64,000 bases of DNA from Bacillota bacterium (GCA_963929915.1 CAWVJY010000002.1:17798-81797), one strand, 5' to 3'. Shown: positions 2,191-61,928, counted from the first letter of the stretch. Made by a program: numbers and translations. The notes: generated by a model from the sequence alone, not told the origin.

Positions 2191-2240
2191 TGTCAAAATT
2201 CTCCGTCACCATTGACAAAAATTCTCCGTTCCCATTGACA
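2191..2240. repeat. GGGGACGG-family repeat, type A, two tandem degenerate units
   Basis: TGTCAAAATTCTCCGTCACCATTGACAAAAATTCTCCGTTCCCATTGACA. Same unit as at 3302, 9037, 40686, 40758, 61769 and 61809. Ends 1 nt from the rpmA stop codon. Confidence 0.85.
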
Positions 2241-2241
2241 T

Positions 2242-2516
2242 TTATTTAACTGTACTTTCCTCTTCTACTGGATAAACACTGACTTTCTTTTTATCTTTGC
2301 CAAGTCTTTCAAATTTTACTTTACCAGTAACTTTTGCAAATAAAGTATCATCACTTCCAATACCAACATTAGTACCTGATGAATTTTTGTTCCTCTTTGT
2401 CTTACTAAAATATTACCTGCTGGAACAATTTGTCCATCTGCTCTTTTTAGTCCCAAACGTTTAGATTCACTATCTCTACCATTTTTAACGCTACCTTGAC
2501 CTTTTTTATGAGCCAT
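2242..2516 (-). CDS. rpmA: 50S ribosomal protein L27 with an apparent 1-nt deletion
   Basis: [46 protein letters not shown] matches L27. After about position 2378 the expected [45 protein letters not shown] is readable in the adjacent frame down to the stop at 2242-2244. Confidence 0.85.
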
Positions 2517-2662
2517 GCTATCTCACTCCCTTCATTTTTTAATTCGGGTATATCTATTTTTCTTTTAAATAGTTTTTACCATTTGATTGTTTTAAATTTA
2601 ATTTAATTTTCAATTATGCTTAATTAAATCTAACTTCTATTAGATTCTATTATATTTTTTTA

Positions 2663-3085
2663 CTAAGCTTCTTTTTTAGTAGTATCAGCTTTTTTAGTAG
2701 ATGTTGTCTTTTTTTCTACTGGTTTTGCTACTGCTTCTTTTGCTTCTGCTTTAGGAGTTTCTGTTTTTTCGCTAGCAGTTTTAATAGCTGTAATTTCTAC
2801 TTTAGTATATGGTTGTCTGTGACCTTGTGTCCTTCTATAATTCTTTTTAGCTTTATATTTATACACTAAAATCTTTTTACCTTTACCGTGAGAAACTACT
2901 TTTCCTTCTACTTTTACACCTTTTACATAAGGAGCTCCTACTTCTACTTTTTTGTCATCAGATACTAAAACAACGTGATCAAATGTTACTTTTTTTCCTT
3001 CTTCTGCATCTAATTTTTCGAAGAATACTACATCTCCTTGTGCTACTTTGTATTGTCTTCCACAGCTTTCAATAATTGCGTACAT
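2663..3085 (-). CDS. rplU: 50S ribosomal protein L21 with a Lys/Glu/Ala/Thr-rich C-terminal tail
   Basis: [25 protein letters not shown]... is L21-like. ATG 3085 lies 12 nt downstream of AGGAGG (3098-3103). The GTG at 3097 used by the ORF track directly abuts the RBS, so it is an unlikely start. Confidence 0.88.
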
Positions 3086-3097
3086 TACTTCGTACAC

Positions 3098-3221
3098 CTC
3101 CTATATTTGTATACTCGCTAAGCATAAATAACAAGGCAATTGCTCTACCCGCAATATTTAGTTGCCCGACTCAGGCGGCTTACAGTTAAATATTGTACCA
3201 CATTTTTTCTAGATATGTCAA
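3098..3221 (-). promoter_or_regulatory. rplU promoter plus GC-rich 5' leader of about 95 nt (possible L21-leader-type regulatory RNA)
   Basis: On the minus strand: TTGACA (3216-3221), 18-nt spacer, TACAAT (3192-3197). The leader contains GC-rich self-complementary segments (GCCGCCTGAGTCGGGC, GCAATTGC) that are unusual for this AT-rich DNA. Confidence 0.45.
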
Positions 3222-3301
3222 GTATCTTACAATATTTTTCATTGTAATTTCATAAACTACTTTATGTTATTTCTGTATTAGCAATAACTATGTGATAATG
3301 A

Positions 3302-3345
3302 TTGTCAAAAATCTCCGTCCCCATTGACACCCATTGACAAAAATA
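3302..3345. repeat. GGGGACGG-family repeat, type A plus a partial unit
   Basis: TTGTCAAAAATCTCCGTCCCCATTGACACCCATTGACAAAAAT. Confidence 0.85.
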
Positions 3346-3370
3346 AGGGAATCCAATTAAGGATTCCCTT
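3345..3370 (-). terminator. rho-independent terminator following the tRNA-like gene
   Basis: Minus strand: AAGGGAATCC-TTAATT-GGATTCCCTT followed by ATTTTTG. Confidence 0.6.
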
Positions 3371-3371
3371 A

Positions 3372-3678: not shown

Positions 3679-3688
3679 GAATTTGGAG

Positions 3689-3886
3689 TTATACTTCTTC
3701 TATGGTAGTAATGCCGGAAAAGAAAATCAACTTTTCCTTCTGACTCTTCGTTTCTCTTATCCGAAGACAAACGTCATCATTTGATTCCAAAGTTCCAGTC
3801 ATCTGGAATCCGTTCACCACGAAAATCCGCATTTCTTTTCCTCTCATTGAGCTCAAATACTTCTCTGCGATGTAATTCGTTACCAT
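3689..3886 (-). CDS. Hfq/Sm-like RNA-binding protein (65 aa)
   Basis: EMRIFVVNGFQMTGTLESNDDVCLRI resembles the Hfq Sm1 motif (v.i.L.nG..l.G.i.sfD.f.vlL). KLIFFSGITTIEE resembles Sm2 (l.YKHAIsTi). GC content is higher than the surroundings. Confidence 0.55.
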   Translation of the reverse strand: MVTNYIAEKYLSSMRGKEMRIFVVNGFQMTGTLESNDDVCLRIRETKSQKEKLIFFSGITTIEEV

Positions 3887-8100: not shown

Positions 8101-8336
8101 CTTTTCTTCACATGGTTACATATTTTTTTATGCCACCATATGCTCCTTTTATCATAAAATTTAGGTTTTTAAAGTGGCTACCCATAAACCTCATTTTTCT
8201 TTTTTATTATATTCTACTTTTTTTGTTTTTTCAATTGTTTTTTTAGTGAAATTTTTGTGTCCTTCTAACGGTCAGGCACTTTCTTTTTTTCTTCCGCATA
8301 TAATGCTAGTAAATGTTTTTAGGAGGTATGTTATTT

Positions 8337-9035
8337 ATGTTTTCTCTTTCTTTAACTGGTTTTTTAGCATTTTTAAACTCCGCTATTTTTTTGGTTGGTT
8401 ATATATCTAATAATTCTTTATTTCCAGAACCTTTAAGTAGCGAAGAAGAAAAGAAATATTTAGAACGTTTAAAGGAAGGGGACGAAGAAGCTAGAAATAT
8501 TTTAATAGAACGAAATTTAAGATTAGTAGCACATGTATGTAAAAAATATAGTACTACAAAAGTAGAACAAGATGATTTGATTTCTATTGGAACTATTGGA
8601 TTAATAAAGGGAATCAATAGTTTTGATAGTAGCAAAGGCGTGAGACTTGCAACCTATGTTTCTCGTTGTGTAGATAACGAAGTATTGATGTTTTTAAGAA
8701 GTAATAAAAAGGTAAATGCAGAAGTATATTTAGAAGACCCTATTGGAAAAGATAAAGATGATAATACTGTTACTTTACAAGAAGTTTTAGAAAATAACGA
8801 GAAAAATATAGAAGATGAAGTGGATTTAAAATTTAAAGTAAAAAAACTATATGAGAAAATGAAAGAAGTACTAAAGGCAAGAGAAAAAACAATTTTAGAA
8901 TTAAGATTTGGACTTGGAGGCAAAAAGCCTCAAACGCAAAATGAAATTGCTGATAGCATGGGAATTTCCCGTTCTTATGTTTCTAGAATTGAAACCAAGG
9001 CAATTGGCAAATTAGCAAAGGAATTTAAGGAATGA
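8337..9035 (+). CDS. sigK: sporulation sigma factor, SigK-like (SigE/SigK group), with pro-sequence
   Basis: FPEPLSSEEEKKYLERLKEGDEEARNILIERNLRLVAHVCKKY...DLISIGTIGLIKGINSF...LATYVSRCVDNEVLMFLR is close to the SigK pattern as I recall it. The hydrophobic N-terminal leader is typical of pro-sigma factors. ATG 8337 lies 10 nt after AGGAGG (8321-8326). Confidence 0.8.
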   Translation: MFSLSLTGFLAFLNSAIFLVGYISNNSLFPEPLSSEEEKKYLERLKEGDEEARNILIERNLRLVAHVCKKYSTTKVEQDDLISIGTIGLIKGINSFDSSKGVRLATYVSRCVDNEVLMFLRSNKKVNAEVYLEDPIGKDKDDNTVTLQEVLENNEKNIEDEVDLKFKVKKLYEKMKEVLKAREKTILELRFGLGGKKPQTQNEIADSMGISRSYVSRIETKAIGKLAKEFKE

Positions 9036-9036
9036 G

Positions 9037-9158
9037 TGTCAATGGGGACGGAGAATTTTGACAACTTAAGTCGTTGGGGACGGTTCTTAGTGACCCCATT
9101 TAGGGCCACTGAGAACCGTCCCTAGTAGCCCCTTTTAGGGTCACTAAGAACCGTCCCC
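9037..9158. repeat. GGGGACGG-family repeat cluster: one type A unit plus three type B units
   Basis: Type A unit TGTCAATGGGGACGGAGAATTTTGACAA at 9037-9064. Type B units: GGGGACGGTTCTTAGTGACCCC (9076-9097), AGGGCCACTGAGAACCGTCCC (9102-9122, inverted), AGGGTCACTAAGAACCGTCCCC (9137-9158, inverted). Confidence 0.88.
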
Positions 9159-10992
9159 AACATTCAACATTCTTAATGCGTTTAGTATTGCTATAATAGA
9201 AACTCCTACATCTGCAAATACTGCCCACCACATGCTAACTATTCCAATTGCAGTTAAAATAAGTATCAAAATTTTTACAATAATTGCAAAATAGATATTT
9301 TCTTTTACAATTCTCATTGTCTTTTTTGCAATTTGAATTGCTTTACTAATTTTGGATGGTTCATCTGTCATAATTACTACATCTGCTGCTTCTATTGCTG
9401 CATCTGAGCCAACTCCACCCATAGCAATTCCAATATCGGAAAGTGCTAATACCGGTGCATCATTAATCCCATCTCCTGCAAAGACTAATTTTGCGTTTTC
9501 TGTTTTACTTTTTAGTAGTTCTTCTACTTTTTCTACTTTTCCATCTGGTAAAAGTTCTGCATATACCTCATCCATTTTTAGTTCTTTTGCTACTGCTTCT
9601 GCTACTTGTTTTTTATCTCCGGTAAGCATAACTGTTTTTTGAATGTGATTTTTCTTTAGGTCTTCTATTGCTCGTTTTGCATCTTGTTTAATTTTATCTG
9701 CAATTACAATAGTTCCTGCAAATTTTCCATCTATAGCAACATATAATATGGTTCCTATATCTCCACTTTCTTGATAATTAACATCATATTGTTTCATTAA
9801 TTTATCATTGCCTACTAAAACTTGTTTGTTTTCTACTACTGCTTCTACTCCATGACCCGAAATTTCCTTTGCTTGAGAAACCAATTTGCTATCTATTTCT
9901 TTTTGATATGCTTTTTTCAAAGATAAAGAAATAGGATGATTAGAAAAACTTTCTGCATAGGTTGCCATTTTTAACAGTTCTTCTTTTGATATATCTACTG
10001 CCTCTATCTTTTGTACCTCAAAAACACCTTCTGTTAGTGTTCCTGTTTTATCAAATACTACGATTTCCGCTTGTGCCAAAGCTTCTAAATAATTACTACC
10101 CTTTACCAAAATTCCACATTTGGAAGCTCCTCCTATTCCTCCAAAAAATCCTAAAGGAATAGAAATAACTAATGCGCATGGGCAAGATACTACTAAAAAG
10201 CTAAGTGCCCTATAAATCCAATCTGTAAAATTAGCATTTGGTATTAGTATTGGTGGCAAAATTGCTAAAAAAATAGCGATTATTACCACAATTGGTGTAT
10301 AATATTTGGCAAATTTGGTAATAAAATTTTCTGATTTTGACTTTCTACTACTTGCATTTTCTACTAAATCTAATATTTTGCTAACAGTAGATTCTCCAAA
10401 TTCTTTTGTTACTTGAATAGAAATAACACCTTCTTGGTTAATACATCCGGCTTAGTATTTCATCTCCTACTTTTATACTTCTTGGTACAGATTCTCCTGT
10501 TAACGCAGAGGTATCAAGCATAGATTTTCCATCTAATACAATTCCATCTAAAGGAACTTTTTCACCTGGTTTTACTACAATGGTTTCTCCAATTTTTACT
10601 TCACTTGGATCTACTTTTTGTAATTTTCCATCTCTTTTTGCATTAGCAAAATCAGGTCTAATATTCATAACACTTGCAATCGATTTTCTAGATTTATCCA
10701 CTGCATAACTTTGGAATAATTCTCCTACTTGGTAAAATAACATAACTGCAACTGCTTCTGGAAGTTCTCCAATAGCAAATGCTCCAAGAGTTGCAATTGT
10801 CATTAAAAAGTTTTCGTCAAATACTTTTCCTCTAAAAATATTGCGAATGGCTTTCCAAACAATTGGAAAACCGACAATAATATAGCTTATAATATAAATT
10901 GCATTATTAATCCAAACATTTGCAAACCTAATAGTTAATGCTACTATAAATAATGATAAAGCAATTATTACCTGTATCACTCTTTTTTTCAT
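9144..10992 (-). pseudogene. cadA: heavy-metal (Cd/Zn/Co-type) P1B-type ATPase, frameshifted near 10290-10440
   Basis: Two ORFs (10438-10992 and 9144-10289) together give the TM/actuator part, CPC motif (VSCPCALV), DKTGTLT and GDGINDAP. The missing linker (INQEGVISIQVTKEFGESTVSKILDLVENASSRKSK...) is readable in another frame. Confidence 0.85.
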
Positions 10993-11719: not shown

Positions 11720-11925
11720 TTATCAATCACTTCCTATCTTATTGTTAATTAGCAATTCTGAAATAAATAAATTGCCATTTCGTATTTTTATTTCATTTTA
11801 TTATATGCAAACAATTGAATATGTGTTCAACTTTAATATTATTATAGTTGAATGTATATTCAATTGTCAATAGATTTATGATAAAAATTTAAATTTATAA
11901 ATGGCAATAATAAATTTCCGGTTTA

Positions 11926-12916
11926 TTATGCACAAATTTCACTTAAGATTTCGTTGGTACTTTTATAATTAAACATAGCTCTTGGATAATTATTTATCCA
12001 ATCTTCTATTTTTTGTATAAATTCTTCTGATATTGGTGTTATATCAATTCCTTTTGGTATAAACCTTCTTATTAATCTATTAGCATTTTCATTACTTCCT
12101 CGTTCTCCTGAACGATATGGATGGGCATAATATATTTGTGTTCTAGCCTTTTTTCTTCGATTATCATAAGATTTCTCTAAAGCCTTCCAATTTCTAAATT
12201 CTCCACCATTATCAAAAGTTATAGTTTTAAATTTATTATAAAATATTTTTTTATATTTCTTTTCTATTATATCTAATGCTTTTGCTACATATTCTGCTTT
12301 CTTTCCGGGTAGCTTTACGATTATTTCTTCCCTTGTCTTTCTTTCAGTTAAAGTAAATAATACTGAACCTCTTTTTTTAGTTCCTATTACTAAATCTCCT
12401 TCCCAATGTCCATATATTTCTCTACTATTAGCTTCTTCTGGTCTATAATCTATACTCTTTTCTGCTGGTACTTTTTCGCATACTGTCTTTTCTTTATTTT
12501 TTTCCTTATATTCTTTGTTGTAAATCATATCGCTTGATTTTATATCATAAATATCTCCTGCATATATATTATTTCTAATTGTTCTTGCACACATTTTTGT
12601 TTTAAAATTCATTGTTTTTATCTCTTTTGCTATTACTTCTGGTGACTTTTTATCTTCTTTTATAGCTTTTTCAACATATTCTTTTAATTCATAATCATTA
12701 TCTATTTTTAACTTTGGTCCTTTTGCTTTTAAATAATATTCATATTTTTGCTGTGCTACATCTGCACTATATACCCATATTTCAATTAATTCCGTTGTTA
12801 GATTTTTTACTAATCCTCTTTTTATTTCATTCCTTATTGTCTTTTCTGTTCTATCTAAAAGTTCAGCTATTTCAAGTTTTGTACGTTTATCTCTATTCCA
12901 CCATCTTTCTATTGAT
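11926..12916 (-). pseudogene. IS30-family DDE transposase, C-terminal 330 codons (the N-terminal 26 codons lie at 14563-14642)
   Basis: HWEGDLV...TFDNGGEF...RGSNENANRLIRRFIPKG is the IS30 DDE signature. The frame stays open upstream of Met 12612 (SIERWWNRDKRTKLEIAELLDRTEKTIRNEIKRG) up to the insertion junction. Confidence 0.85.
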
Positions 12917-14562
12917 GGTCAATTGTAAAAATAAATTTTATTTAGAAAAAGTAACTTCTAGTTACCGAAAAAAAGCTATTTAAAAGCAAAAAAATGGTAA
13001 AAAGAGGTTGCTTTTTTTATGAATTTTGTGTAAAATGAAGATATAGACAAGAAAAAAGAGCGCAATTAAGCGAGTGAATTCAAATTAATTTTTTTGAGTG
13101 TAAGACTAATTTCTATTCACTTAATTTTGTGGACACGACAGTGCCAATATTAAATTAGCGTGGATACTTCTTGTAGATGTTTTTTTAATTATTTTAAGAG
13201 ATAAGGTTGTAGTGTGACCTTATCTTTTTCAATCTTTTGTATGTTTAGTTTATCTAAAGTAACTTTACCATAGAAAAATTCAAATGCTTCATATGGTGTT
13301 TTTCCACCTAAAGACTTTCTAGGTACAGAATTGATATGTGAAAACATTAAGTTAAGCTTGTCCTGAGTTAAATCTTTAAAGCTTTTTTTCTTAGACAGAA
13401 TATCACGTACAAATATATGATTATTCTCTACATGAGGCTTCTGGCTAGACATTTGAGCATCACAGTAAAAAATATTGCTTCTAATTTCTCCAGTCTCACA
13501 ATTAATTTCAAAAAGCTGTGGCTTAGCAAATTCGGATCCTCTGTCAGTAAGAAGTAAGCCAAATAACTTATGATACATATCATCTGATAAAATATCCTGA
13601 AAGTAATTAAGAGAATTGGACATTTCCTCAGCCGTTTTATGTTGTTTTAAAAGCCCTATCATAAAGCCTGTATTTTCAAATATGAAAGTCTGGATAAATG
13701 GACCGTTCTGATTATTGTAAACAGTATCCATTTCAGTTGTAGGCATATCAGAATTGTTCTTTACAAACTCTAGATAATCTTCATACTTTCTACCGGTGTA
13801 ATCAGCAGGTTCAGCTCTTTTCTTGAGTTTTTTCTTTCTAGATATTTTCCTTTTTACTTTTCTTCTTAGTTCAAGGTCAGTAACACCCCAATCTTTGAAT
13901 AAGCCCATTTCAATGTATGTATAAATTGTCTTTTCACATTGCTTGATTTCTTTGTGATTTTGTAAAATTGTATAAATTGATTGACCTTGTTTTATTAAAG
14001 GACAAATGACATGTGCTAATTCATAAAGTTCAGTTGTGTTTAAATTAACACCTTGTCTAGAATCTTTTAAAGTATATTCATAATTGCTTTGAGCAGTATT
14101 AGCGTAGTAGAAGTATTTGGCTTTATTACATTTTTTAATGTTAGGGCAACAATTACAAGCACCTATGAATCTGTCTCTTTGAAGACAAGGAACTTCCTCA
14201 AAATCAATACATTTGCTAACACAAACTTTGCATTCATTGAAATGTTTGCAAGCCCAAGGGGCTTCATCAATTTTAGAATATCTACGTTTTCTATTGTTTT
14301 TAATTTCCTTTCCGATAGTAGATTGACTTTTGTTAAGTTCTTTAGCAGTTTGGAATTTTCTTAATCTTTTGCAAATATTTTGTTCGATAACTTTCCTATC
14401 TTCTAAAGATAGATGCTTACCATCAAATTTCATAAATACCTTCTTTCTCAAGAAGTATCCACATTTATATTATACTAAATTGCATTTAATCTTACAATAA
14501 CTGTTAATTTACTATTAATTTGTATTTATTTTTTATTGAATAGAATTTACTTTTTTAATTAA
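12917..14562 (-). mobile_element. inner IS element (1646 bp) inserted into the outer IS30 transposase gene
   Basis: Flanked by a 15-bp direct duplication CATCTTTCTATTGAT (12902-12916 and 14563-14577). Imperfect terminal inverted repeats of about 25 bp (about 19/25 matches by eye). Carries its own transposase. Confidence 0.8.
13189..14451 (-). CDS. DDE transposase, divergent IS30-like, with a Cys-rich insert
   Basis: N-terminal HTH (HLSLEDRKVIEQ...STIGKEIKNN). Catalytic-type motifs MDTV, TDRGSEF and PHVENNH, followed by SVPRKSLGGKTPYE as in IS30-family enzymes. Confidence 0.75.
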   Translation of the reverse strand: MRKKVFMKFDGKHLSLEDRKVIEQNICKRLRKFQTAKELNKSQSTIGKEIKNNRKRRYSKIDEAPWACKHFNECKVCVSKCIDFEEVPCLQRDRFIGACNCCPNIKKCNKAKYFYYANTAQSNYEYTLKDSRQGVNLNTTELYELAHVICPLIKQGQSIYTILQNHKEIKQCEKTIYTYIEMGLFKDWGVTDLELRRKVKRKISRKKKLKKRAEPADYTGRKYEDYLEFVKNNSDMPTTEMDTVYNNQNGPFIQTFIFENTGFMIGLLKQHKTAEEMSNSLNYFQDILSDDMYHKLFGLLLTDRGSEFAKPQLFEINCETGEIRSNIFYCDAQMSSQKPHVENNHIFVRDILSKKKSFKDLTQDKLNLMFSHINSVPRKSLGGKTPYEAFEFFYGKVTLDKLNIQKIEKDKVTLQPYLLK

Positions 14563-14873
14563 CATCTTTCTATTGATTGTCTTTCACTATATTCTAAGTG
14601 TTTACCTTTTCTACTTTTTGTGGTATTATTTTCTTGACACATAATTAATTCTTCCTTTCAATGTTTGATTCGACACCAACATTGTATCATAAGTTTTAAT
14701 TATGTGTCTTTTTATTTATCTTAAAACGGTAATTTAATTTTACCATTTATATAAAAATTTAAATTTTTTGCAATAAAAAAGAGACTGTCCTAAAATCAGC
14801 CTAAATCTATTGAAAAGATAATTTTAATGCTGTGGCGATATTTTAAAACAATCTCTTTTTATCTATTATTTCA

Positions 14874-22004: not shown

Positions 22005-22046
22005 GGGGACGGTTCTCAGTGGCCCCTAAAGGGGTCACTTGGGACA
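22005..22046. repeat. GGGGACGG-family repeat, type B-like, in the thrS 5' UTR
   Basis: GGGGACGGTTCTCAGTGGCCCC-TAAA-GGGGTCACTTGGGACA. Lies between the T-box terminator and the thrS RBS. Confidence 0.85.
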
Positions 22047-22059
22047 CTTCATGACAACT

Positions 22060-22300
22060 AAAATGTATTGTATCCCTTTAACAATAAAAATACTCCTAAA
22101 ATATATTTTCCATATATTTTAGGAGTGCTTTTATAACACGGTTCCATCCCTTAAATTTACTTAATTACTTCTTTAACGCAGAAATACGTCTAGTTTTTGC
22201 TAGAAACAATGAGGTAGTTTTTCAAATCCGTTTATTTAGACTAGCTTTCAGCCTATGACTAATCTTCTCTTTTAACAACCTTGATTTTACTTTGTCTCAT
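22060..22300 (-). promoter_or_regulatory. T-box riboswitch leader of thrS with intrinsic terminator
   Basis: Minus strand has AAUUUAAGGGAUGGAACCGUG (22137-22158), matching the T-box consensus AAnnnGGGUGGUACCGCG. It is followed by terminator ACTCCTAAAATATAT-loop-ATATATTTTAGGAGT (22091-22127) plus a U-run. Upstream there is an AGAGA-like element and an ACU/ACC-containing candidate specifier region. Confidence 0.8.
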
Positions 22301-22330
22301 TTTTGTCTTTTTCTTTATCACTTAAAATGA

Positions 22331-22372: not shown

Positions 22373-22459
22373 TTTTTACATTTTTTTTGCTTTTAAATAG
22401 CTTTTTCTCGGTAACTAGAAGTTACTTTTTCTAAATAGAATTTATTTTTACAATTGACC
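22373..22459. mobile_element. solo terminal fragment (about 85 bp) of the inner IS element, inverted relative to the 12917 copy
   Basis: The reverse complement of 22381-22459 matches 12917-12995 (GGTCAATTGTAAAAATAAATT..GCAAAAAAA) with 2 mismatches by eye. No transposase is attached. Confidence 0.8.
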
Positions 22460-22488
22460 AAAAATTATGAAAAAAATGTAATAATGTC

Positions 22489-22761: not shown

Positions 22762-23047
22762 AAGTTTTTCTCCCATTCTTAATAACATAAAAGTAATACA
22801 TTCAGCATAATCTATACTCGATTTTCTTTTTATAATATAAAACCAAACATTTCATAACTTACTAATATTACTTTTATTGATACATTTTTACCTACTTACC
22901 ATATCTTTGTATTAATTTCATCATGTACCTTATCATTACTGTATATAATGCCAATTAATATGATTTTTTGGAAGGAATAAATCTCTTTAATACTAATACT
23001 ATCACTGAATATATTCCGTAAAATATATTATCTGGAAATTGTATTAG

Positions 23048-23187
23048 AGTGTGGGTCTGGTGGAGATGTTGGAATTGTTGTCGTTGTTCGGATTGTTGTT
23101 GTTGCGGTTGGAAGCTGGATTGTTAGAGCCGGAATTGTTGTAATTGCCACCACGATTAACACGATTGTTGGTGTTGTTGGCCTTTTG
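23048..23187 (-). repeat. DGR template repeat (TR)
   Basis: 140 nt, gap-free alignment to 25349-25488. The sense (minus) strand is rich in AAC/AAT codons. All 20 differences from the VR are at sense-strand adenines of this copy. Non-coding location 100 nt downstream of the RT stop. Confidence 0.93.
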
Positions 23188-23288
23188 ATTTATCCCTAAT
23201 TCTTTATTTAATTTTATTATTATTGTAATTTGTATTTTTTATTTTAATTTGTAATTTTACTATTGTTTCATACTAAATTTATATCACT

Positions 23289-24329
23289 TTACTCTATATA
23301 AAATATTTTTTTCGTCAAATTATAGATATTGGCATAATGAATATACCCCATATGTCCTGCTAAATACTTTTTAGCTTCTTTGCTACTTATTTTTCCACTT
23401 TTTATATTGTATTTTAATTCTTTTACTTTTTTCTTAAGTTTTCTTTTTCCCTTATCTCGTATTTTTAGCCTATATTCATTAATTTTATATCCACAAAAAT
23501 TCACTCCTTGTTTGCTTTTAAATATTTGTGTTTTTTCATTAAGTTCTAGTTCTAAATGGAATTTTAAGAACTTCTTAATATTTTTTAAATATGTTTTAGC
23601 TTCTTTTTTTGTTTTTGCAAATAATACCATATCATCGAGATAACGAAAGTAATACTTCACTTTCAAACTATGCTTTATATATTGATCCAATTCATTTAAA
23701 TAGATATTAGCAAAAGTTTGAGATGTATAATTTCCTATTGGTAAACCTTTTCTTTTACCTAATTGGTTTTCTAATTCTTCTTTTGTGCAGTTTGAATAAA
23801 TAATTTCTTGTAATAACCATAATAGCTTTTTATCTGTTATTTTTCTTTTTAATATTTGAAACAAAATATCTTTATCAATATGATCAAAATATTTTCTAAT
23901 ATCCATTTTTAAAATATAATAATTATCCCAAATTCTTTTACAATGTTTCATTGTGTTTTGTACATCAATGCATGCTTTATGCATTCCTCTATTTTTAATG
24001 CAAGCATAGGTATGAAATATAAAGCTTTTTTCGAAATACTGTTTTAAAAAATTATCTACTACCCATCTATGTACAATTCTATCTATATATCTGCTTTTTT
24101 CTATTCTTCTTAATTTTTGTTCTGTTACATAAAAGGTAGTATATCCACCATGCCTATAACTTCCTGTTTTTAATTGTTCATAAAGCCACATAATATATTC
24201 TTCTTGTTTTAAGTTAAATAAGATAATTTCTTTTCTATAGCCTTTACCTTTTCTACTTAACTTATGGGCTTGCATTAGATTTTCATAATTCAGCTTTTTG
24301 TCATATTCATTTTTTATTTTTCTTGCCAT
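23289..24329 (-). CDS. DGR reverse transcriptase
   Basis: RT motifs RKYFDHID, LPIGNYTSQTFANIYL (DGR-type [LIV]GxxxSQ signature) and YLDDMVLF (YxDD). 346 aa with no maturase or endonuclease extension. Confidence 0.92.
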   Translation of the reverse strand: MARKIKNEYDKKLNYENLMQAHKLSRKGKGYRKEIILFNLKQEEYIMWLYEQLKTGSYRHGGYTTFYVTEQKLRRIEKSRYIDRIVHRWVVDNFLKQYFEKSFIFHTYACIKNRGMHKACIDVQNTMKHCKRIWDNYYILKMDIRKYFDHIDKDILFQILKRKITDKKLLWLLQEIIYSNCTKEELENQLGKRKGLPIGNYTSQTFANIYLNELDQYIKHSLKVKYYFRYLDDMVLFAKTKKEAKTYLKNIKKFLKFHLELELNEKTQIFKSKQGVNFCGYKINEYRLKIRDKGKRKLKKKVKELKYNIKSGKISSKEAKKYLAGHMGYIHYANIYNLTKKIFYIE

Positions 24330-24666
24330 AATATTTAATAAGTCCTCCTACTAGTTTTCCTATTTCAGAAATGTATGACATAGCTATATTAAATTTTTTC
24401 TCATCTATCCATCTATTTTTTACCATCAGTCTTAAGAATATCCTTTGGCAATTTAGCTCTACATCTATTTTGTCTATATAATATAGCCTTTTGCTTTCAT
24501 CTATTTTTACAATATACATTACATTTTTTAGCATTTCATACATGGATACCTTATATTCATTACCTATACTAAATTTTTCTGTTCTTGGTAATTTTATTAG
24601 TAGATTTAGCATGTATTCTATATATGTTTCTACTTTTGGTATTAATAATAATCCTTGTTCTTCCAT
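24307..24666 (-). CDS. avd: DGR accessory variability determinant (Avd-like four-helix-bundle protein)
   Basis: 119-aa basic helical protein. LPRTEKFSIGNEY and C-terminal EIGKLVGGLIKY resemble bAvd / 23S rRNA intervening-sequence-protein family motifs. Overlaps the RT start by 23 nt. Confidence 0.8.
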   Translation of the reverse strand: MEEQGLLLIPKVETYIEYMLNLLIKLPRTEKFSIGNEYKVSMYEMLKNVMYIVKIDESKRLYYIDKIDVELNCQRIFLRLMVKNRWIDEKKFNIAMSYISEIGKLVGGLIKYYGKKNKK

Positions 24667-24689
24667 TGTTTTTTATACCATTGTATATT

Positions 24690-25106
24690 TTATAAATTTT
24701 TTATTTTTGCTATTTTTTCGTCTATTAAGTTATGATTTTGTTTAACATTCCAAGAACATTTTGCACAATTAAAACATTTTCTACTTTCTGCTACTGGTGA
24801 TAATATAATTCTTTTTAAAAGTTCATATTTCCTTTCTCTATTTTCTTTTTTGGGATAATATTCATAAATTGCTACAGATATATTTTTTGCTATTATTTTT
24901 CTTATAAATTTATCAATTTTTGCAACTGGTATTGCACACTTACATATATTTTTAGAAATACATATATTATTTAATCCAAATTGTTCTCGTAGTAATACTG
25001 CATCTTTTCCTACTCCATAAAAGAAAATTCCGCAACGTATTAATACCAAATAGTCAATATTTTCTGGCTTATTTTGTATTTCTTCCACAATTTTTAAAAA
25101 CTTCAT
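24690..25106 (-). CDS. small MutS-domain-I-like DGR accessory protein (MSL-type), 138 aa
   Basis: From ATG 25106 (RBS GGAGAA): YLVLIRCGIFFYGVGKDAVLLREQFGLN...CAIPVAKIDKFIRKIIAKNISVAIYE parallels the MutS mismatch-binding domain I pattern (l.f.r.GdFYE.f..DA......L.l.......aGvP.......l..Li..G..VAi.eQ). C-terminal CxxC..C cluster. Confidence 0.5.
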   Translation of the reverse strand: MKFLKIVEEIQNKPENIDYLVLIRCGIFFYGVGKDAVLLREQFGLNNICISKNICKCAIPVAKIDKFIRKIIAKNISVAIYEYYPKKENRERKYELLKRIILSPVAESRKCFNCAKCSWNVKQNHNLIDEKIAKIKNL

Positions 25107-25246
25107 GATTTTCTCCTTTCCTTGTGTTGTATATATTTTTTGACAAAAAAATATATACCACGCAAGTGGTATACCACGCAAGTTAATACTTTCTTGTGGC
25201 ATTTTGCCTTTGGGCAAATGCCAACAAGTAAAGTATTGATTACGTG

Positions 25247-25267
25247 GTACTCCCACATGGGGAGTAC
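25247..25267 (-). other. GC-rich hairpin about 70 nt downstream of the VR / target stop codon
   Basis: GTACTCCC-ACAT-GGGGAGTAC. A stem-loop downstream of the VR is a known feature of DGR target loci. Confidence 0.5.
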
Positions 25268-25335
25268 ACGCAATCCGTTTGTTCTAATTTTTACCCTTTA
25301 GTCAAGTACTATGTTAACTTATCCACTACTCAGTG

Positions 25336-35996: not shown

Positions 35997-36807
35997 ATGA
36001 AATTTCTTATTGATTATTGTAAAGGGATTTTAATTGGTAGTGGTGCAATTTTGCCAGGTATTAGTAGTGGTGTTTTTTGTGTTATTCTTGGTATTTATGA
36101 AAAATTAATTGATAGTGTGCTAAACTTATTTCATGACTTTAAGAAAAATTTTATTTTTCTTCTTCCTATTGGTCTTGGTGGAATTACAGGAGTGTTATTA
36201 GTAGGCAAATTGCTTAATTTTCTCTTTAATGAATACCCTATGCCAACTAAGTTTTGCTTTATCGGTCTTATTTTAGGTAGTATTCCTGTATTATTCAGGC
36301 AAGCAAATCAGAAAAACGGTTTTCGACTTTCCCATCTCCTTTTTCTAGTAATTGCTTTTTTTATTGGTTTTCTTTCTGTTAAATTAAAAACTATATTGCC
36401 AAATCTCATTAGCTTAGACTTAGGAGAAAATAACTTTTTCTATTTTATACTTTCTGGATTTCTTATGTCCGTTGGTATTGTAGTTCCTGGCGTAAGTAGT
36501 AGTGTTATTTTAATGTGTTTACGGTGTTTATAATCTTTATTTAGGTGCTATTTCTACTGTAAATTTATCTATATTAATTCCTATGGCAATTGGACTTTTA
36601 CTTGGAAGTCTATTGTTTTTAAAAGTAATTCAGTTTTTATTAAAACATTATTATACGCAAACTTTTTATGCCATTATTGGATTTGTATTAGGCTCTGTTC
36701 TCATTCTATATCCTGGATTTAACTTTAGTTTAGAAGGCTTTATCTCTATTGGATTATTCATTTTAGGTTTTTACATTGGTTTAAAGTTTGAAAAAGTCAG
36801 CCAGTAG
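35997..36807 (+). CDS. DUF368-family integral membrane protein, apparent frameshift near 36530-36585
   Basis: GILIGSGAILPGISSGVFCVILGIYE and a second VPGVSSSVIL repeat are typical of DUF368. The C-terminal 74 codons are in another frame. Confidence 0.75.
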
Positions 36808-37031
36808 GGACGGTCCTTTTTGGCTGATTTTCGACCATTGGGGACGTTCCCTTTTGGCTGAAAAACAACCAAAAGGGACACTCCTCCTCTTTTTTATTTC
36901 TAAATAAAAGGAATGTCCCTAATGTAGCTAAAAGTAATAGTAACTAAAATCAACAAAAAAATAAACGCTCCTAATAGCCGTAAAAGAAGTGTCCCAAGTT
37001 ACCCTAGATAGGGTAACTCTCCCCGTCCCTA
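36797..37031. repeat. GGGGACGG/GGGAC-core repeat cluster (type C and variants), at least 6 core copies
   Basis: TCAGCCAGTAGGGACGGTCCTTTTTGGCTGATTTTCGACCATTGGGGACGTTCCCTTTTGGCTGAAAAACAACCAAAAGGGACACTCC ... GGAATGTCCCTAATG ... GTGTCCCAAGTTACCCTAGATAGGGTAACTCTCCCCGTCCCTACTT. The TTGGCTGATTTTCGACCA word is shared with 61882-61900. Confidence 0.85.
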
Positions 37032-40685: not shown

Positions 40686-40785
40686 TGTCAATGGGGACGG
40701 AGAATTTTGACAACTTTTGAATTAAGATTTAATAAAAATAAATATTTTTTAAAAAAGTTGTCAAAATTCTCCGTCCCCATTGACA
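40686..40785. repeat. 100-bp palindrome made of two inverted type A GGGGACGG repeats
   Basis: TGTCAATGGGGACGGAGAATTTTGACAACTTTT (40686-40718) is the exact reverse complement of AAAAGTTGTCAAAATTCTCCGTCCCCATTGACA (40753-40785). The spacer is AT-rich, 34 nt. Lies between divergent genes. Confidence 0.9.
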
Positions 40786-56485: not shown

Positions 56486-57188
56486 TCATTTTTTAGTCTT
56501 TTTTAACATTTTTTGTTTTTCTAAAATGATTTCCTCTACATTTTCTTTAACTTGTCCAATTGTTAAATGAGTGGTGTCTACTACTATTGCATCTTCAGCT
56601 ATTTTTAAGGCTCCTACTGGTTTATGCATATCATTATAATCTCTTTTTTTCATGTCTTCTAAAGTTTCTTCATAGGTTGCTACAATGCCTTTTTCTTGGT
56701 TTTCTAAAAATCTTCTTTTGGCTCTTTCTTCTACATCTGCATCTAAATAGATTTTAACATCTGCATTTGGAAATACTACTGTGGTAATATCTCTTCCTTC
56801 CATAATAACATCCTGATTTTCTGCCATTTTTCTTTGCAAGTCTACCATAATTTCACGCACTTTTCCGGATAGAAGATACAGGAGATACAAAATTACTTAC
56901 TTCTTTGGTTCTTATTTGCCTACTTACATCTTCTCCATTTAAATATACTGTAATTTCTCCATTTATATTTTGCATTTGAATATTAATATTTTTGGCAATT
57001 TCTATAATTTTTTCTTTTTCTTCTGTAGATTCAATAGAATTAATTCCTTTTCTTAAACATTCTAATGCTACACATCGATACATTGCTCCTGTGTCTATGT
57101 TAAGTAGATTTAATTCCTGTGCTATTAATTTTGTAATGGTTCCTTTTCCGGTTCCTGCTGGTCCATCTATTGCTACAATAAACGACAT
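56486..57188 (-). CDS. cmk: cytidylate kinase, frameshift near 56853-56890
   Basis: MSFIVAIDGPAGTGKGTITKLIA P-loop, DTGAMYR. The second half VREIMVDLQRKMAENQDVIMEGRDI is in the overlapping ORF. Confidence 0.88.
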
Positions 57189-57198
57189 TTTTCTCCTC

Positions 57199-58167
57199 CT
57201 ATTCATTTTTTCCTTTACTTTGGTTTTCTTGTTTTTCTGACTTTTCTTCTAAAGTTTGCACATTTTCTTGTTCTTGCTGTATATTTTTTTCTTCTATTTT
57301 TTGCAATTCTTCTGGCTCTAGCATATGTATTCCTTTTGCTACAATGGTTACTTGTTGCACATTCATGGTTGTTAATTTTTCTATTTCTTTTTTTATTTTT
57401 TGTTTGAACTCCCTTAAAGTTTCCAAAATGTTAAACCCATAATTAATAGAAACCTCCATATAAATGTTAGGTCCTTCTGGTGTACTCTCTACTCTAGTTC
57501 TCATAACTTTGTAAATGGCATCTGTTTTCTTTGCTAAATATTCTGCAATTTGGCGAAATACTGTATCGGAAATAGTAAAATTTCCTAAATAACTAAAGGT
57601 TGGTCTTATAATAGATTTTTCTGCTATATATGGGTCGTTTCCTTTTCCTTTTAGTTTAAAAATTTGTAATGGGTCTAAAATATAGCCTGAAAAGTCTTTT
57701 TTGATTTCAAAGGTTGGTACAGGAATAACATGTTTTCCTTGTGTAGTACGAATTCTTTTGGCTGTTTCCATTTCTGTTTCTGTTGCGACATCTTGAATAT
57801 AAATTCTTTTTTCTGGTTTGGAAAGTCCCAAATTTTCTGCAATTTTATCTACCATTCCATCTGAAGTACCCAGAATTAAAATAGATTCTGGTTTTAGTCT
57901 TCTAATTGCCTTTTTCATTTCGTTTCTATCTTTTTCATTTACAAAGATTGCTTTTTTTACGGTTTCTACTTTGGTAGGTGCTTTTTTAGCAGAAGTTCCT
58001 GCTACTACATTATTATCATGAATTAACAATCCATCATCAATAATATAGTGGATTTTGTTTTCATTTGCTACCATTTGGGCACGGTAACTTTTCCCTGTTC
58101 CAGATGGTCCTACAAAGGCATATACTTTTATTTCTTCATTAGAAATTAAATTATTAAAAAGTTGCAA
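57199..58167 (-). CDS. P-loop NTPase fused to an Asp23/Gls24-like C-terminal domain
   Basis: Walker A GPSGTGKS. The C-terminal ISDTVFRQIAEYLAKKTDAIYKV...VESTPEGPNIYMEVSINYGFNI resembles Asp23-family proteins. Confidence 0.55.
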   Translation of the reverse strand: MQLFNNLISNEEIKVYAFVGPSGTGKSYRAQMVANENKIHYIIDDGLLIHDNNVVAGTSAKKAPTKVETVKKAIFVNEKDRNEMKKAIRRLKPESILILGTSDGMVDKIAENLGLSKPEKRIYIQDVATETEMETAKRIRTTQGKHVIPVPTFEIKKDFSGYILDPLQIFKLKGKGNDPYIAEKSIIRPTFSYLGNFTISDTVFRQIAEYLAKKTDAIYKVMRTRVESTPEGPNIYMEVSINYGFNILETLREFKQKIKKEIEKLTTMNVQQVTIVAKGIHMLEPEELQKIEEKNIQQEQENVQTLEEKSEKQENQSKGKNE

Positions 58168-58183
58168 TTTGGCTCCTTCCTTT

Positions 58184-59801
58184 CTACTCTTTTTCTACAG
58201 TAATAATTTGATATACAAATCCTCTATATTTTGGTCTAATTTTCTTTCTTGCTATTTCTTTTAAATCATATTTTTCTGCCATTTCATTGTACCACTCTAA
58301 TCCTTCATGGTCAATTAAAATCATTCTGCCATGATAATCATCTAAAAAATCTTCCTCAAAAGTAATTTTTAGTGGTGGACTATAGTTTTCAAAAGGTGTT
58401 ACATCATGGTTTGGATCTATGTGATATAAATACCAATTATATTCTGGCATCTGTACAAAAATATTACTTGCATGGAAATAATCCTGATATAAAATCATAT
58501 CTCCTTCTTTATATTGTTCTTGAATATAGCGAACTTCTTCTCCATTAGTAGAATCATAATTTTCTTCTATAATAATACTATTATTATATATACTCAAACC
58601 TAGAATAATCATTACTACAATACTAGAAATAATTTTCTGGTGTTTGGTGGAATTGCTAAATAAGAAATAGGCAAATGGGAAAAGAATAATTCCACTTGTA
58701 ATTAACATATAACGATAATACATAATTGGTCTTATTAGCACAGTAACAATTAACATGGAAAAGAAAAGAATAAAATGTACTAATAAGCAATACCAAATAA
58801 TAGTTAAATTCTTTTTTTGTTTTTTATGGCAAATAATCTGGTAAATTAAGTAGCTGTACATAATAATTGTAAAAATGGTACTAATAGTAACACTTAATCT
58901 TCCATTAAATTGTACTCCTAAAGGTGCTGCTATAGAATCTGTCCAGTTAAATGGAATCCAATAAGACTGACTTACTTTTCCGTGCTTGTGTTAGAAATAC
59001 AAATAGCCATGGTAAATAGCCTATAATTTCTACAATTGCTGCAAATAAAAATCTAAAAATATATTTCTTTTTTAACTTTTTCTTTTGTATTAGAAAATCT
59101 TCATAAGAAGTATAGTATGGTATTTTTTCTTCATACATTTTTTGTGAAAATAAAATATGTAGTAATAACAAGCCATTCATGATGGCGACTGCTACTAGTC
59201 CATAGTAATGGCAATGGGCAGCGCATAAGCTAGCTATAGCAAACAAAAGCCAATTTCTCTTTTTTTCTTGTTTGATACTTCTGTAAGCATATATGCCAGA
59301 TAAAGTAGTAAATAGCATAGTCCAACTATACATTCTAATTTCCATTCCGTACATTGCCATAAATGGAAGGAATAGCATAAAAAAGGAAAAGGCTAACCCT
59401 ACTTTTGGTCCAAAATCTTTACGAATATGAGTAAATCCTAAAATTCCTATTAAAATCCCTGCTGATACAGAAAATAGCCTAGCTACTAAAATGGAGTTTC
59501 CAAAAATACAATTAACTGCTTTTAATAATAAATAATATAAAACAGGATGAACATCATTGCTATCAATACGAATAATGTCACTAATATCATGGGAAACTAG
59601 AGCTATGGTATAACTTTCATCAAACCATACCTCTGTGTGAAATGCTCCCAATAGAATAAAGATGCTACCTAATATGATAATTAAAATATGGAACCATTTT
59701 GATACTATAATATTTTCTATTTTACTTTTGTTATTACTTTGTTGTTTTTGTGTAGCTTCTTCTTTTTGCTTTCTTTTTGCTAGCTTTTCTTCTTTCTTCA
59801 T
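58184..59801 (-). CDS. PMT_2/GT39-like (ArnT-type) membrane glycosyltransferase, split near 58861-58947
   Basis: WFDESYT...SNDVHPVLYY motif, polytopic membrane, C-terminal soluble domain. Two ORFs in different frames. Confidence 0.65.
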
Positions 59802-59925
59802 TATTTTCCCCTTATTTTTTGTTACTATGTTTTCTATTTGTGTTGTTCTTCTATGGTATTGTTTTTATTTTATTTTTTTAACTTTTTACTTTTTTACCTT
59901 TTTATCTTTCTACTTTTTTATCTTT

Positions 59926-61603
59926 CTACTTTTTCTCTACTAAACTAATATAATATTGATAGCCATGATATTCTGTGGAAAAGTGGTCTTGCTTAATTAA
60001 TTTAAGGTTTTCTCCATAACGTTCTGACATTTCTCTATAAATGTTATAATTTCCTCCATCAATAACCCAAATTCTGCCATAATAGTCATCTAAACCCTCT
60101 AATGTTTTTATGGTTTTCATATTTTTACCAAAAGCTTGGTAAGCAGGTTCTACATTCCAATAATCTCCATCAAAAAAGCAGTTTGCAATATCTGGTAATT
60201 GCATACTAAGTACAAATCCATTACCTGTATTGCCAAATAAAAGAAGGTCATCTTGTTGTAAATCTTGTTTCACATATTCTAAAGGCTTGCTATTGGTTGG
60301 TCCATAATTCATGGTACTTACATTGTAATTTACAAAAATTGCTGTAATTAAGGTAAGAATACAAATAAGAATGGTTAATATTTTCTTGCCACCTTTTATC
60401 ATAAAAAATGCCATAAAGAATATGAAGATTCCTGTTAAATTTAAGAAATATCTAGCATATAAAATAGGTACTTTTAAAGAAATAATGAAAATACAAATAA
60501 CCACAATGGCATATACACCAATGGCAAATAATCCTGGTTTGTTACTTTTTCTATGTTTTACTATTGCATAAATCATAGTGCCAATTGCATAGGCAAGTAA
60601 AATAATACTAAAAGTAAGTGCTAACTCTTGTTTTAAAAATATAGTATCTAGATTTCCTGTAAATTGAAAAGTTAAAATTTGTAGCCATACTTCTATAGAA
60701 GGAGTTTGTATCCAAAATCCTTTTGATACAGTTTGGAATTGTGCTAATAAATAAATGAGCCATGGTAAATATAAAGCTATTTGTATAATAGCAGAAGCAA
60801 TAAAACATTTTAAGTTTAAAATATTGAATTTGCTTTTTTCTGTTATGGTTTTGTTTTCAGATTGTTTTTTATGTATTTTTATTTGATTTATAATGAAATA
60901 GATAAATAATGCTAAATTAATAATTCCTGCAGTTGCTAGACCATAATAATGGGTATAACTAGCTGTTAAGCTAAAAACGGCAAATAAAACCCAATTTTTA
61001 TAAAATCCCTTTGGCTTAGTTATTTTCTTTTTCTCTTTTTCTGTTTGATTATTTTGAGCTTTTGTTTTTTCTTCTTCTGTTAGTTTTTCTTGTGGTTGAA
61101 GGCTATTTTTATAAATTCTATAAGCATAAATTGCCATTAAGCTTACAAGTAACATTGCCCAAGTGTACATTCTAATTTCTCCTGAATATACACACATAAT
61201 TGGCAAAAAAAACCACGAAAAAGGAAAAAAGTAAGCCTACTTTTTCTCCAAAATCTTTTCTAATATGAGTATAGCCCAATATTCCTAATATAGCAATTGG
61301 AATCATGGATAATATTCTATAAATATAAATATTAGGTCCAAATAATAAATAAACAATATGTAAAATCCAATAATATAGCACAGGATGAACATCATTGCTT
61401 CCTATTGACCAAATATCAGCAAAGCTCTTATTGGCCATTCCAACAGAATAGCTTTCATCAAACCATAAGTTTTGGTGAAAGATAGGAATACTAATAAAAA
61501 TAATACCTAATAAAATAATAGCAATATGAATATATTTTAAATTTTTTTCTTGCTTTAAATTATGTTCTTTATTTGGTATTTCTGTTACTTTACCCTTTTT
61601 CAT
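59926..61603 (-). CDS. PMT_2/GT39-like membrane glycosyltransferase paralog, split near 61172-61206
   Basis: WFDESYS...SNDVHPVLYY motif. Same architecture as 58184-59801. Two overlapping ORFs in different frames. Confidence 0.65.
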
Positions 61604-61768
61604 GTAAAAAATTCTCCTCTTTTTATTTTTTATTTTTTGTATTTTATATGTTTTTTCATTTATTTATATATTTTTATATTTTATACTTTCATATTTTCTG
61701 CATGTTTTTTATTCTTTTGCATTATATCATTATTATATTCTATTGTCTAGATTCTTTTAGGATGAAAA

Positions 61769-61928
61769 TGTCAATGGGGACGGAGAATTTTGACCATTTC
61801 ATTAAAAGTTGTCAAAATTCTCCGTCCCCACTGACAAAGAGGAGAAAACCTCTTATAAATGTTCCTGTAAAGGAGTGTCCCTGTTGGCTGATTTTCGACC
61901 AATAAGGACCGTCCCTATTGGCTGATTT
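61769..61928. repeat. GGGGACGG-family cluster: inverted pair of type A units plus type C units
   Basis: TGTCAATGGGGACGGAGAATTTTGAC (61769-61794) and TTGTCAAAATTCTCCGTCCCCACTGACA (61809-61836), then GGAGTGTCCCTGTTGGCTGATTTTCGACCAATAAGGACCGTCCCTATTGGCTGA. Confidence 0.9.

Follow-up and report, generated by a model that had tools for sequence, protein, structure and literature searches.

Two families of dispersed repeats in a gut Clostridia genome, probably REP-like families of RAYT-type tyrosine transposases

We analyzed a 64,000-nucleotide stretch of a Bacillota bacterium genome (GCA_963929915.1, CAWVJY010000002.1:17798-81797; hereafter the window), in which short repeats with a GGGAC core are scattered between the genes. 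The original prediction, made from the sequence of the window, had listed seven main repeat loci. It suggested either a family mobilised in trans, similar to repetitive extragenic palindromes (REPs) or miniature inverted-repeat transposable elements (MITEs), or a set of binding sites for one sequence-specific protein. We find that the repeats are very probably REP-like families of HUH-Y1 tyrosine transposases, of the REP-associated tyrosine transposase (RAYT) or TIRYT type, whose genes lie outside the window.

The window is about 29% GC, its GC skew is negative throughout, and its minus strand holds most of the genes. Their content is ordinary housekeeping (a trpS/tyrS-type synthetase, rpmA, rplU, hfq, a sigma factor, thrS, P-type ATPases, and typA), along with a long cell-envelope glycosylation cluster. 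The window is 96–99.8% identical to contigs L032 and L013 of the human-gut metagenome-assembled genome (MAG) MGYG-HGUT-04078 ("uncultured Clostridium sp."), and it is thus another strain of that species. Frameshifts affect several essential genes, among them rpmA, which has a single missing base at TKIH|GTNVG. Frameshifts split rpmA (2241–2517), a P-type ATPase (9144–10992), a VCA0040-like gene (35997–36807), cmk (56486–57206), and a PMT_2 gene (59926–61603), which suggests indel errors in the assembly rather than pseudogenes. So, single-base differences in the repeats should not be over-read.

Two families of structured repeats

Reading each of the seven main loci showed that the predicted structured repeats are present at all of them. 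An eighth candidate, at 1249–1275, is at best a badly decayed remnant and could not be verified. The three unit types that had been proposed (A, B, and C) reduce to two families: B and C have one word-hairpin-word architecture, and type A is separate. The proposed core is indeed common to both families, as GGGGACG, although the split between B and C did not stand. Other parts of the description hold: units lie outside of genes or at the very edges of coding regions; single, tandem, and inverted-pair arrangements all occur in type A; and the tandem arrays are not CRISPRs, as they hold repeat material only, with periods of 22–23 or 34 nt.

The motif is also commoner than chance, as had been expected: GGGGACGG has 9 exact matches in the window, versus a mean of 0.03 in 100 dinucleotide-preserving shuffles. 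For comparisons across loci, we scanned a genome collection with a type A 20-mer (48 loci, from about 17 species of uncultured Clostridia) and metagenomes with a two-word pattern for B/C units (at least 120 loci). The statistics on placement use the window and 50 related loci that were picked for carrying the motif, so they are biased and should be taken as descriptive only; by our crude model of open reading frames (ORFs), about 80% of this sequence is coding. In this sample, 84% of GGGACG[GT] words are intergenic, compared to 14–21% for control 5-mers. Units occupy 39% of convergent, 30% of divergent, and 15% of tandem intergenic regions; relative to a gene that ends in the region, they are in the sense orientation modestly more often (38:22 and 30:11). 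In being short imperfect palindromes, extragenic and in many copies, the units resemble those of REP or REPIN-RAYT systems.

The type A consensus is TGTCAATGGGGACGGAGAATTTTGACA, and its units are single, in tandem, or in inverted pairs that form hairpins. Locus reading and a repeat finder identified eight type A units in the window, which start at 2191(-), 2214(-), 3302(-), 9037(+), 40686(+), 40759(-), 61769(+), and 61810(-). At 2191–2240(-), one of the predicted loci, two type A units form a head-to-tail tandem with a 23-nt period and mutated cores (GGTGAC and GGGAAC), and they start directly after the stop codon of rpmA. The locus reported at 3302–3345, between the hfq terminator and the upstream region of rplU, contains one type A unit (3302–3329, minus strand); the sequence at 3330–3339 is not a separate unit but a 10-nt partial copy of the head (CCCATTGACA). 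The unit at 9037–9063(+) matches the consensus exactly and begins 1 nt past the TGA of the sigma-factor gene (8313–9035). An inverted pair at 40686–40785, between divergent genes, is REPIN-like, with perfect 33-bp arms around a 46-nt AT-rich spacer (folding energy −40.9 kcal/mol, z −14). Another pair, at 61769–61836, has a 14-nt spacer (−27 kcal/mol, z −10). More broadly, type A pairs form stems of 27–33 bp at −27 to −41 kcal/mol, with z from −10 to −14.

Because these pairs, with their 27–33 bp arms and short AT-rich interiors, look like MITEs, we considered that the repeats might be MITEs or the ends of an ordinary, catalogued insertion sequence of the DDE type. A subset of the pairs in one genome does have a 46-nt interior in common, and a strain-specific 2.85-kb insert in the window carries an rve-integrase ORF and an HTH_38 ORF. 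However, that insert is not bounded by these units. The spacers within pairs vary from 4–69 nt, are mostly unrelated between copies, and are sometimes palindromic themselves, and we found no target-site duplication around type A pairs. Furthermore, among related loci that total roughly 440 kb, we found no DDE transposase between the arms of a pair; only a Y1 enzyme, described below, is consistently bracketed. We consider a DDE origin to be very improbable.

Type A units also have a "stutter": a partial copy of the unit's own head precedes 35 of 110 units, versus 8 of 110 at a control position. Its modal form is TGTCAATGGG|TGTCAATGGGG..., its length is 6–14 nt, and full tandems of 22–23 nt are also seen. 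The type A stem covaries (TGCCA...TGGCA variants in L026, L047, and L048). In L051, a type A unit can be read as protein-coding (MSMGTENFDN...), but the copies differ non-synonymously, and their differences follow the palindrome rather than the codons. We also rejected an outward promoter, as we found no −10 box at a constant spacing from the terminal TTGACA, and a role as an attachment site or an association with tRNAs, as few of the units are next to tRNA or tmRNA genes. No Rfam family matches any of the repeat units at its gathering threshold. Viral contigs have three type A matches, all from one host-like region adjacent to tRNA-Gly, and no matches to the B/C pattern.

Two arrangements of type A units are worth recording. 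In L051 (6538–7370; also in L049, L050, and L042), the 3′ end of a tRNA-Gly gene is followed immediately by a type A pair, then by an ORF for a 120-aa putative membrane protein and a second copy of the pair. The second copy is a direct repeat of the roughly 95-nt pair plus spacer. On IMG/VR contigs, the region adjoins phage-like genes (an amidase and an XRE repressor), and it may be a cassette or the border of an integrated element. Elsewhere, a type A unit is followed by a promoter-like module (CAATTGACAAAGAATGCTATAAT, with an extended −10) at L186 9124–9180, L186 11645–11700, and L024 3362–3425. The CAATTGACAAAGAATGCTATAAT module recurs upstream of two different genes, so a type A unit may have carried a promoter along with it.

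Units of the B/C family begin with an outer word, GGGACG(G/T)T(C/T)C, which is followed by a 2–6 nt spacer, a 6–10 bp hairpin with a loop of 3–6 nt, and a 1–4 nt spacer. They end with another outer word (in arrays with a 34–35 nt period) or with a closing word, GGGACA(C/G)T(C/T)C. The first word generally has a half-stem in front of it, so that within arrays the word could instead lie in a loop. The window's B/C units have the hairpins TGGCTGA/TCAGCCA, AGTGGCCCC/GGGGTCACT, or GTTACCCTA/TAGGGTAAC. At 9073–9161(-), between convergent genes, two tandem word-plus-hairpin units are closed by an inverted word, and this type B cluster folds as one long hairpin (−32.7 kcal/mol, z −9.7). The single type B unit at 22005–22051(+) comprises GGGGACGGTTCTC, then AGTGGCCCC-TAAA-GGGGTCACT, then TGGGACACTTC; it lies in the 5′ untranslated region of thrS, antisense to thrS. 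The type C array at 36797–36884(+) has three GGGAC words with a 34-nt period, with TGGCTGA/TCAGCCA-type hairpins between them, and ends in GGGACACTCC. Nearby are an isolated word (TTAGGGACATTCC, 36910–36922(-)) and the B-like unit with the GTTACCCTA/TAGGGTAAC hairpin (36986–37032(-)). Finally, the type C unit at 61872–61925(-) is composed of TCAGCCAATAGGGACGGTCC, a hairpin, and GGGACACTCC.

We counted 41 different stem arms across 69 distinct B/C units taken from low-GC loci. Nevertheless, the segments between the words have a mean minimum free energy of −7.3 kcal/mol, versus −1.1 if shuffled, and 80% of them fold at −5 or better, versus 2.8% of shuffles. In an ungapped alignment of 20 units, a 7-bp helix is paired in 82.9% of cells, as compared to 56% if shuffled and 19–41% in slid registers; cells with changes on both sides of the helix number 37, while 15.8 are expected, and the covariation score is 0.65 versus 0.20. 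The B/C hairpin is conserved as a structure, not as a sequence, which points to recognition as a folded single strand.

Among the metagenome matches listed, about 55 low-GC contigs, mostly from the gut, have the full B/C grammar and many hairpins, without the type A core. The GC-rich matches to the two-word pattern are largely due to chance, although a few of those listed have convincing hairpins. Six GC-rich loci from unrelated environments (L127, L130, L139, L155, L170, and L178; 43–72% GC) do have GGGACGGTYC, a convincing hairpin, and GGGACAGTYC. The grammar of a tag plus a hairpin may extend far beyond low-GC Clostridia, which would agree with reports of the GGGGWSAS motif from Proteobacteria and Acidobacteria.

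Orthologous intergenic sites could be compared between the window and MGYG-HGUT-04078 across roughly 17 kb, and they show changes in unit number, a swapped hairpin, and an inverted spacer. L013 has two words in the type C array at 36797, where the window has three, and hairpin loops are flipped (TTT versus AAA). At the stop codon of the U32 peptidase gene, the site of the B-like unit has a AGTAGCCCC/GGGGCCACT hairpin in L013 instead. Near this unit, the window has about 95 nt of extra repeat-bearing spacer, which includes the isolated word at 36910–36922. The type A unit at 9037 has an extra 10-nt copy of the head in L032. And the 46-nt spacer of a type A pair is inverted between the strains (40713–40758 in the window, 4902–4947 in L013). 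This AT-rich spacer sits between divergent genes for a glycosyltransferase and a CmpB-like ABC component; if it were to carry a promoter, it would be an element similar to a phase switch.

The repeats also alter the host's genes. The TAG of TAGGGACGG is the stop codon of three ORFs in the window: 36583–36807(+), at 36805–36807 in the type C array; 37029–38321(-), the U32 peptidase gene, at 37029–37031; and 61915–63009(-), a glycosyltransferase gene, at 61915–61917. The same TAG ends xth in L011, and the TCAGCCA stem encodes the ...(V/I)SQ* ending of two unrelated proteins. So, the units supply the stop codons and the last residues of three ORFs in the window. They also place stable hairpins at the 3′ ends of genes and in the thrS leader, where the unit at 22005–22051 lies between the T-box terminator and the Shine-Dalgarno sequence. 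(The thrS T-box, at 22118–22312(-), is missed by a standard Rfam scan: it scores 54.5 bits, E = 3.5e-11, while the gathering score is 93.)

These locations raise the question of whether the units are structural or regulatory elements selected by the host, such as bidirectional terminators, stabilisers of mRNA 3′ ends, or operators, which were spread by recombination and are only incidentally linked to a Y1 enzyme. Many units are right at stop codons or between convergent genes (39% of convergent regions are occupied, versus 15% of tandem ones), their orientation is modestly sense-biased, their hairpins are very stable, and type A contains TTGACA hexamers. However, 30% of divergent regions have units as well, the unit in the thrS leader is antisense, no T-run is found at the distance from the hairpin that is expected for intrinsic terminators, and no −10 box is fixed relative to TTGACA. 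We saw no functional theme common to the flanking genes. In addition, units bracket the enzyme's gene in every lineage that we examined. Selection by the host as the origin of the repeats seems improbable to us.

A tyrosine transposase bracketed by the repeats

Pfam scans of 60 ORFs agree with the original prediction that the window contains no RAYT gene. It had advised looking for one elsewhere, and we found RAYT-type genes in related genomes and in the window's own species. A 225-aa protein, which we will call RAYT-A, was first read in L017 and L002, in ORFs beside units with extra downstream similarity; tblastn and an HMM (hidden Markov model) found its gene in L001, L007, and L035 as well. 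(A phmmer search with an approximate IS608 TnpA query, together with a strict regular expression for the HUH motif, matched no Y1 gene, which was a false negative.) In L017, L001, L007, L052–55, L056–58, and L185–189, the gene has a type A(+) unit about 110–160 nt upstream of its ATG and a type A(-) unit 3–20 nt past its stop codon, and in L035, the 3′ part of the gene is followed by A(-). This is the arrangement of a REPtron, with an enzyme gene flanked by inverted copies of a dispersed repeat, and it was seen in ten fetched loci that represent five variants of the protein. Furthermore, the variant of the flanking unit tracks the gene: GGGGACGTAG is on both sides in L052 and L053.

RAYT-A has 1,231 homologues at E ≤ 1e-10. 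In the contigs of three of these (P0045, P0106, and P0103), a single gene lies among housekeeping genes and is always bracketed by type A units. Each locus that we fetched has one copy of RAYT-A, and its neighbourhood (TraX...AraC) is the same within the species and in its sister species and different in more distant ones. The contig of P0103 (L186) has a type A(+) unit at 9839–9865, the gene at 10001–10681, and a type A(-) unit at 10688–10714. L186 is 99.6% identical to L010 over 5677 nt and 100.000% identical to MGYG-HGUT-04078 contig L024 over 4075 nt. Because the window is 96–99.8% identical to the same MAG, the window's species encodes RAYT-A. L024 lacks the gene, but this is not a loss: this MAG contig stops at the upstream unit, beyond which L186 extends to include the gene.

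RAYT-A scores 45–50 bits against Pfam's Y1_Tnp (cutoff 23) and has invariant H60xH62 and Y120 with N124-P125-V126 (motif YIYDNPVKAG). Although phmmer against the sequences in the Protein Data Bank (PDB) found no matches, a profile search had E. coli TnpArep (4ER8) as its best PDB match, with E = 1.4e-4 and both the HUH and the tyrosine motifs aligned. Similarly, the AlphaFold2 model (pLDDT 87.5) has 4ER8_A as its best fold match (E = 2.5e-7, TM 0.67 on the target); the next matches are IS608 and ISDra2 TnpA. So the HUH motif, the tyrosine in Y..NPV, and the RAYT fold are all present. About 85 residues at the C terminus form a conserved extension, with the motif ISLRKIA..GRETIRKIY and modeled helices across residues 162–225. 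By sequence and model, the protein has a Y1 HUH nuclease domain at its N terminus and a helix-turn-helix (HTH) extension at its C terminus; the HTH may bind double-stranded TGTCAATGG iterons.

The B/C family has an enzyme of its own in other genomes. Two B/C contigs, L087 and L161, encode members of a sister Y1 clade, which is about 40% identical to RAYT-A (174 and 171 bits to the RAYT-A profile). The gene in L087 lies between inverted B/C units whose outer words face outward, and a closing word abuts the gene's TAA; in L161, a unit lies upstream of the gene, which is truncated by the end of the contig. The genes for two other members, P0220 and P0123, are bracketed by inverted units of GGGACG words and hairpins (L179/L181 and L182/L184). 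We found 846 homologues in this clade, which are about 250 aa long and 37–58% identical. For some of them, the precomputed Pfam annotations include HTH_23, Sigma70_r4, or HTH_7 at the C terminus, so both clades carry the HTH-type extension.

A Y1 gene that is bracketed by type A units supports the original prediction, and its two alternatives become the same thing, because the sequence-specific protein is the transposase. (Uptake sequences, Chi- or KOPS-like sites, and CsrA sites, which we also considered, were dropped once the flanked enzyme gene was found.) Several observations weigh against our identification of the repeats as REP-like families of such an enzyme. No mobilising gene is in the window itself, and we found no sister-clade gene when we looked through the window, 17 loci of MGYG-HGUT-04078, and five loci of 12–21 kb around that species' RAYT-A (together about 10% of its genome). 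RAYT-A scores 77.8 bits against NCBIfam's REP_Tyr_transpos ("REP-associated tyrosine transposase"), slightly below the cutoff of 80. A lone type A unit, which had been described as a hairpin, is a weak one when folded as DNA: its stem is 6 bp long, its 15-nt loop contains the GGGGACGGAG tag, and its folding energy is −2.1 kcal/mol (z −1.7); it is the inverted pairs that fold very strongly. The units have GGGGACG(G/T) as their tag and lack the canonical GTAG head of classical REPs: GTAG occurs only in some C units, as GTAGGGACGG, and CGTC occurs in the reverse complement (CCGTCCCC), but 6–8 nt from the stem. The clean presence or absence of a whole type A unit, which a mobile family was expected to show between strains, was not seen in the 17 kb compared. 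Finally, the cross-locus statistics come from loci that were chosen for the motif, and catalysis by this clade would follow from its homology.

Which enzyme would serve the B/C units of the window? They may depend on an unseen paralogue or on cross-recognition, or they may be relics. One explanation is that a second, B/C-specific RAYT is encoded elsewhere in the genome, so that A and B/C are independent enzyme-repeat pairs with an ancestral GGGACG tag in common. Each clade of RAYTs is flanked by its own type of unit, the low-GC B/C contigs listed from metagenomes have no type A core, and genomes with several RAYT genes, each with its own repeats, have been documented (PMC5581495, PMC3733652). 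Yet we found no such gene in the tenth of the species' genome that we could see. On balance, we judge a second paralogue to be about evenly poised between true and false.

We also propose, tentatively and as the weaker guess, that recognition is modular: the GGGGACG tag and any adjacent hairpin would suffice, and one enzyme, possibly a single RAYT-A, would maintain both families. If so, hairpin sequences would be free to drift or be swapped (as with the 41 stem variants), and the head stutter (modal TGTCAATGGG|) would mark the point of cleavage and rejoining inside the G-run. This class with an HTH would then be a single-strand DNA transposase that is naturally programmable by "tag + structure".

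Whichever enzyme acts on which family, we suggest a mechanism by analogy to the E. coli RAYT and IS608 TnpA. The enzyme would bind the folded single strand, for instance at replication forks; read the conserved GGGGACG tag beside or inside the hairpin; cut via a 5′-phosphotyrosine intermediate; and rejoin the DNA elsewhere. Cutting and rejoining would copy, delete, or rearrange units in trans. For the host, the consequences would include the donation of stop codons, hairpins at 3′ ends, and insertion in a leader.

Other elements in the window

A complete diversity-generating retroelement lies at 22915–26598(-). It comprises the target gene (25336–26598) with its variable repeat (25346–25488), an ORF with a MutS_I domain (24690–25256), bAvd (24307–24666), the reverse transcriptase (23289–24329), the template repeat (23045–23187), and an Rfam RT-14 RNA (22915–23049). 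The mismatches between the template and variable repeats are at template adenines in 20 of 21 cases. Paralogous copies, with 80–82% identity, are found in L008 and L009 of MGYG-HGUT-04078.

The 2.85-kb segment at 11897–14744 is absent from the orthologous site in L032 and is probably an insertion sequence, with an rve-integrase-like ORF at 11926–12612 and an HTH_38 ORF at 13189–14451. A 93-nt stretch within it (12911–13003) is repeated in inverted orientation, with 94% identity, upstream of the thrS promoter (22373–22465). We also noticed a short hfq-like ORF (3689–3886(-), 65 aa), which looks by eye like an Sm-type sequence and lies upstream of the rplU-rpmA operon.

Comparison with known systems

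To our knowledge, REP-RAYT systems have been studied almost entirely in Proteobacteria. Our literature searches found nothing specific on RAYTs or REPINs in Clostridium or Firmicutes, and only irrelevant matches to the motif string. As far as we found, this is a known kind of system without an earlier description in gut Clostridia. One group of RAYTs is present in Clostridia, with only low-copy 16-mers as flanks (Bertels et al. 2017, PMC5581495).

Like IS200/IS605 elements (IS608, ISDra2), the system has an enzyme with the HUH-Y1 fold that presumably acts on hairpins in single-stranded DNA. However, it does not belong to that family: its flanks are inverted repeats instead of subterminal hairpins on the same strand, there is no tnpB, there is one gene in each fetched locus, and RAYT-A scores just 20.8 bits against NCBIfam's IS200 (cutoff 55).

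The resemblance to the classical REP, BIME, and REPIN-RAYT systems of E. coli and Pseudomonas is broader. Both have many copies of short extragenic palindromes, doublets in inverted orientation that make long hairpins (REPINs), and a short conserved tag that is common to several structural classes. In both, the repeats flank the enzyme's gene, which lies among housekeeping genes, and the fold of the catalytic core is the same, with 4ER8 as the best match. But the tag of type A, and that of type C in one register, is in the loop instead of at the foot of the stem, and the enzyme is only about 18% identical to the E. coli RAYT and has an extra HTH domain.

RAYT-like genes that are flanked by terminal inverted repeats (TIRs) have been described as "TIRtrons", and their enzymes as "TIRYT" (Di Nocera, De Gregorio & Rocco 2013, PMC3733652). 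Many of these TIRs have the motif GGGGWSAS, and some TIR families are moderately abundant and occur in dimers and clusters (PMC3733652). TIRYT has been equated with subclass 2.1 of TnpA_REP, which is defined by a C-terminal HTH and for which no REP-like sequences were found near the genes (Quentin et al. 2018, PMC6006769). Neither study mentions Clostridia or Firmicutes for this class (PMC3733652, PMC6006769).

The Clostridia system has the same elements: a RAYT-like Y1 enzyme that is longer than classical RAYTs and has a C-terminal HTH, whose gene is bracketed by inverted repeats with a motif similar to GGGG(A/T)(C/G)A(C/G), and repeats that are also dispersed as singles, dimers, and clusters. 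In type A, GGGGACGG fits GGGGWSAS at 7 of 8 positions (position 7 is G). The inner B/C word fits exactly if a fourth G precedes it (GGGGACAC, GGGGACAG), but many copies have only GGG. In contrast to the reported TIRYT systems, the hosts are uncultured low-GC gut Clostridia and the flanks belong to abundant hairpin-forming families. The word-hairpin-word grammar with free hairpins, the 34-nt tandem arrays, the 6–14 nt head stutter of type A, and the presence of two co-resident families with one tag have not been reported for this class.

Assemblies of MAGs break at these repeats, as in the reference MAG, where a contig stops precisely at the unit that precedes the enzyme gene. The repeats also alter the 3′ ends of genes and offer markers for strain typing, in hosts that are prevalent uncultured Clostridia of human and animal guts. 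A fixed tag with a free hairpin is also a clean set of substrates for the biochemistry of DNA recognition by HUH enzymes. In its copy number and structure, the system behaves like REPs and REPINs; in its predicted domain architecture and its flank motif, it resembles TIRYT or TnpA_REP subclass 2.1, as described in PMC6006769. Enzymes of that subclass were reported with few or no repeat families, whereas here two clades, with over 1,200 and over 800 relatives in public data, each have an abundant structured family.

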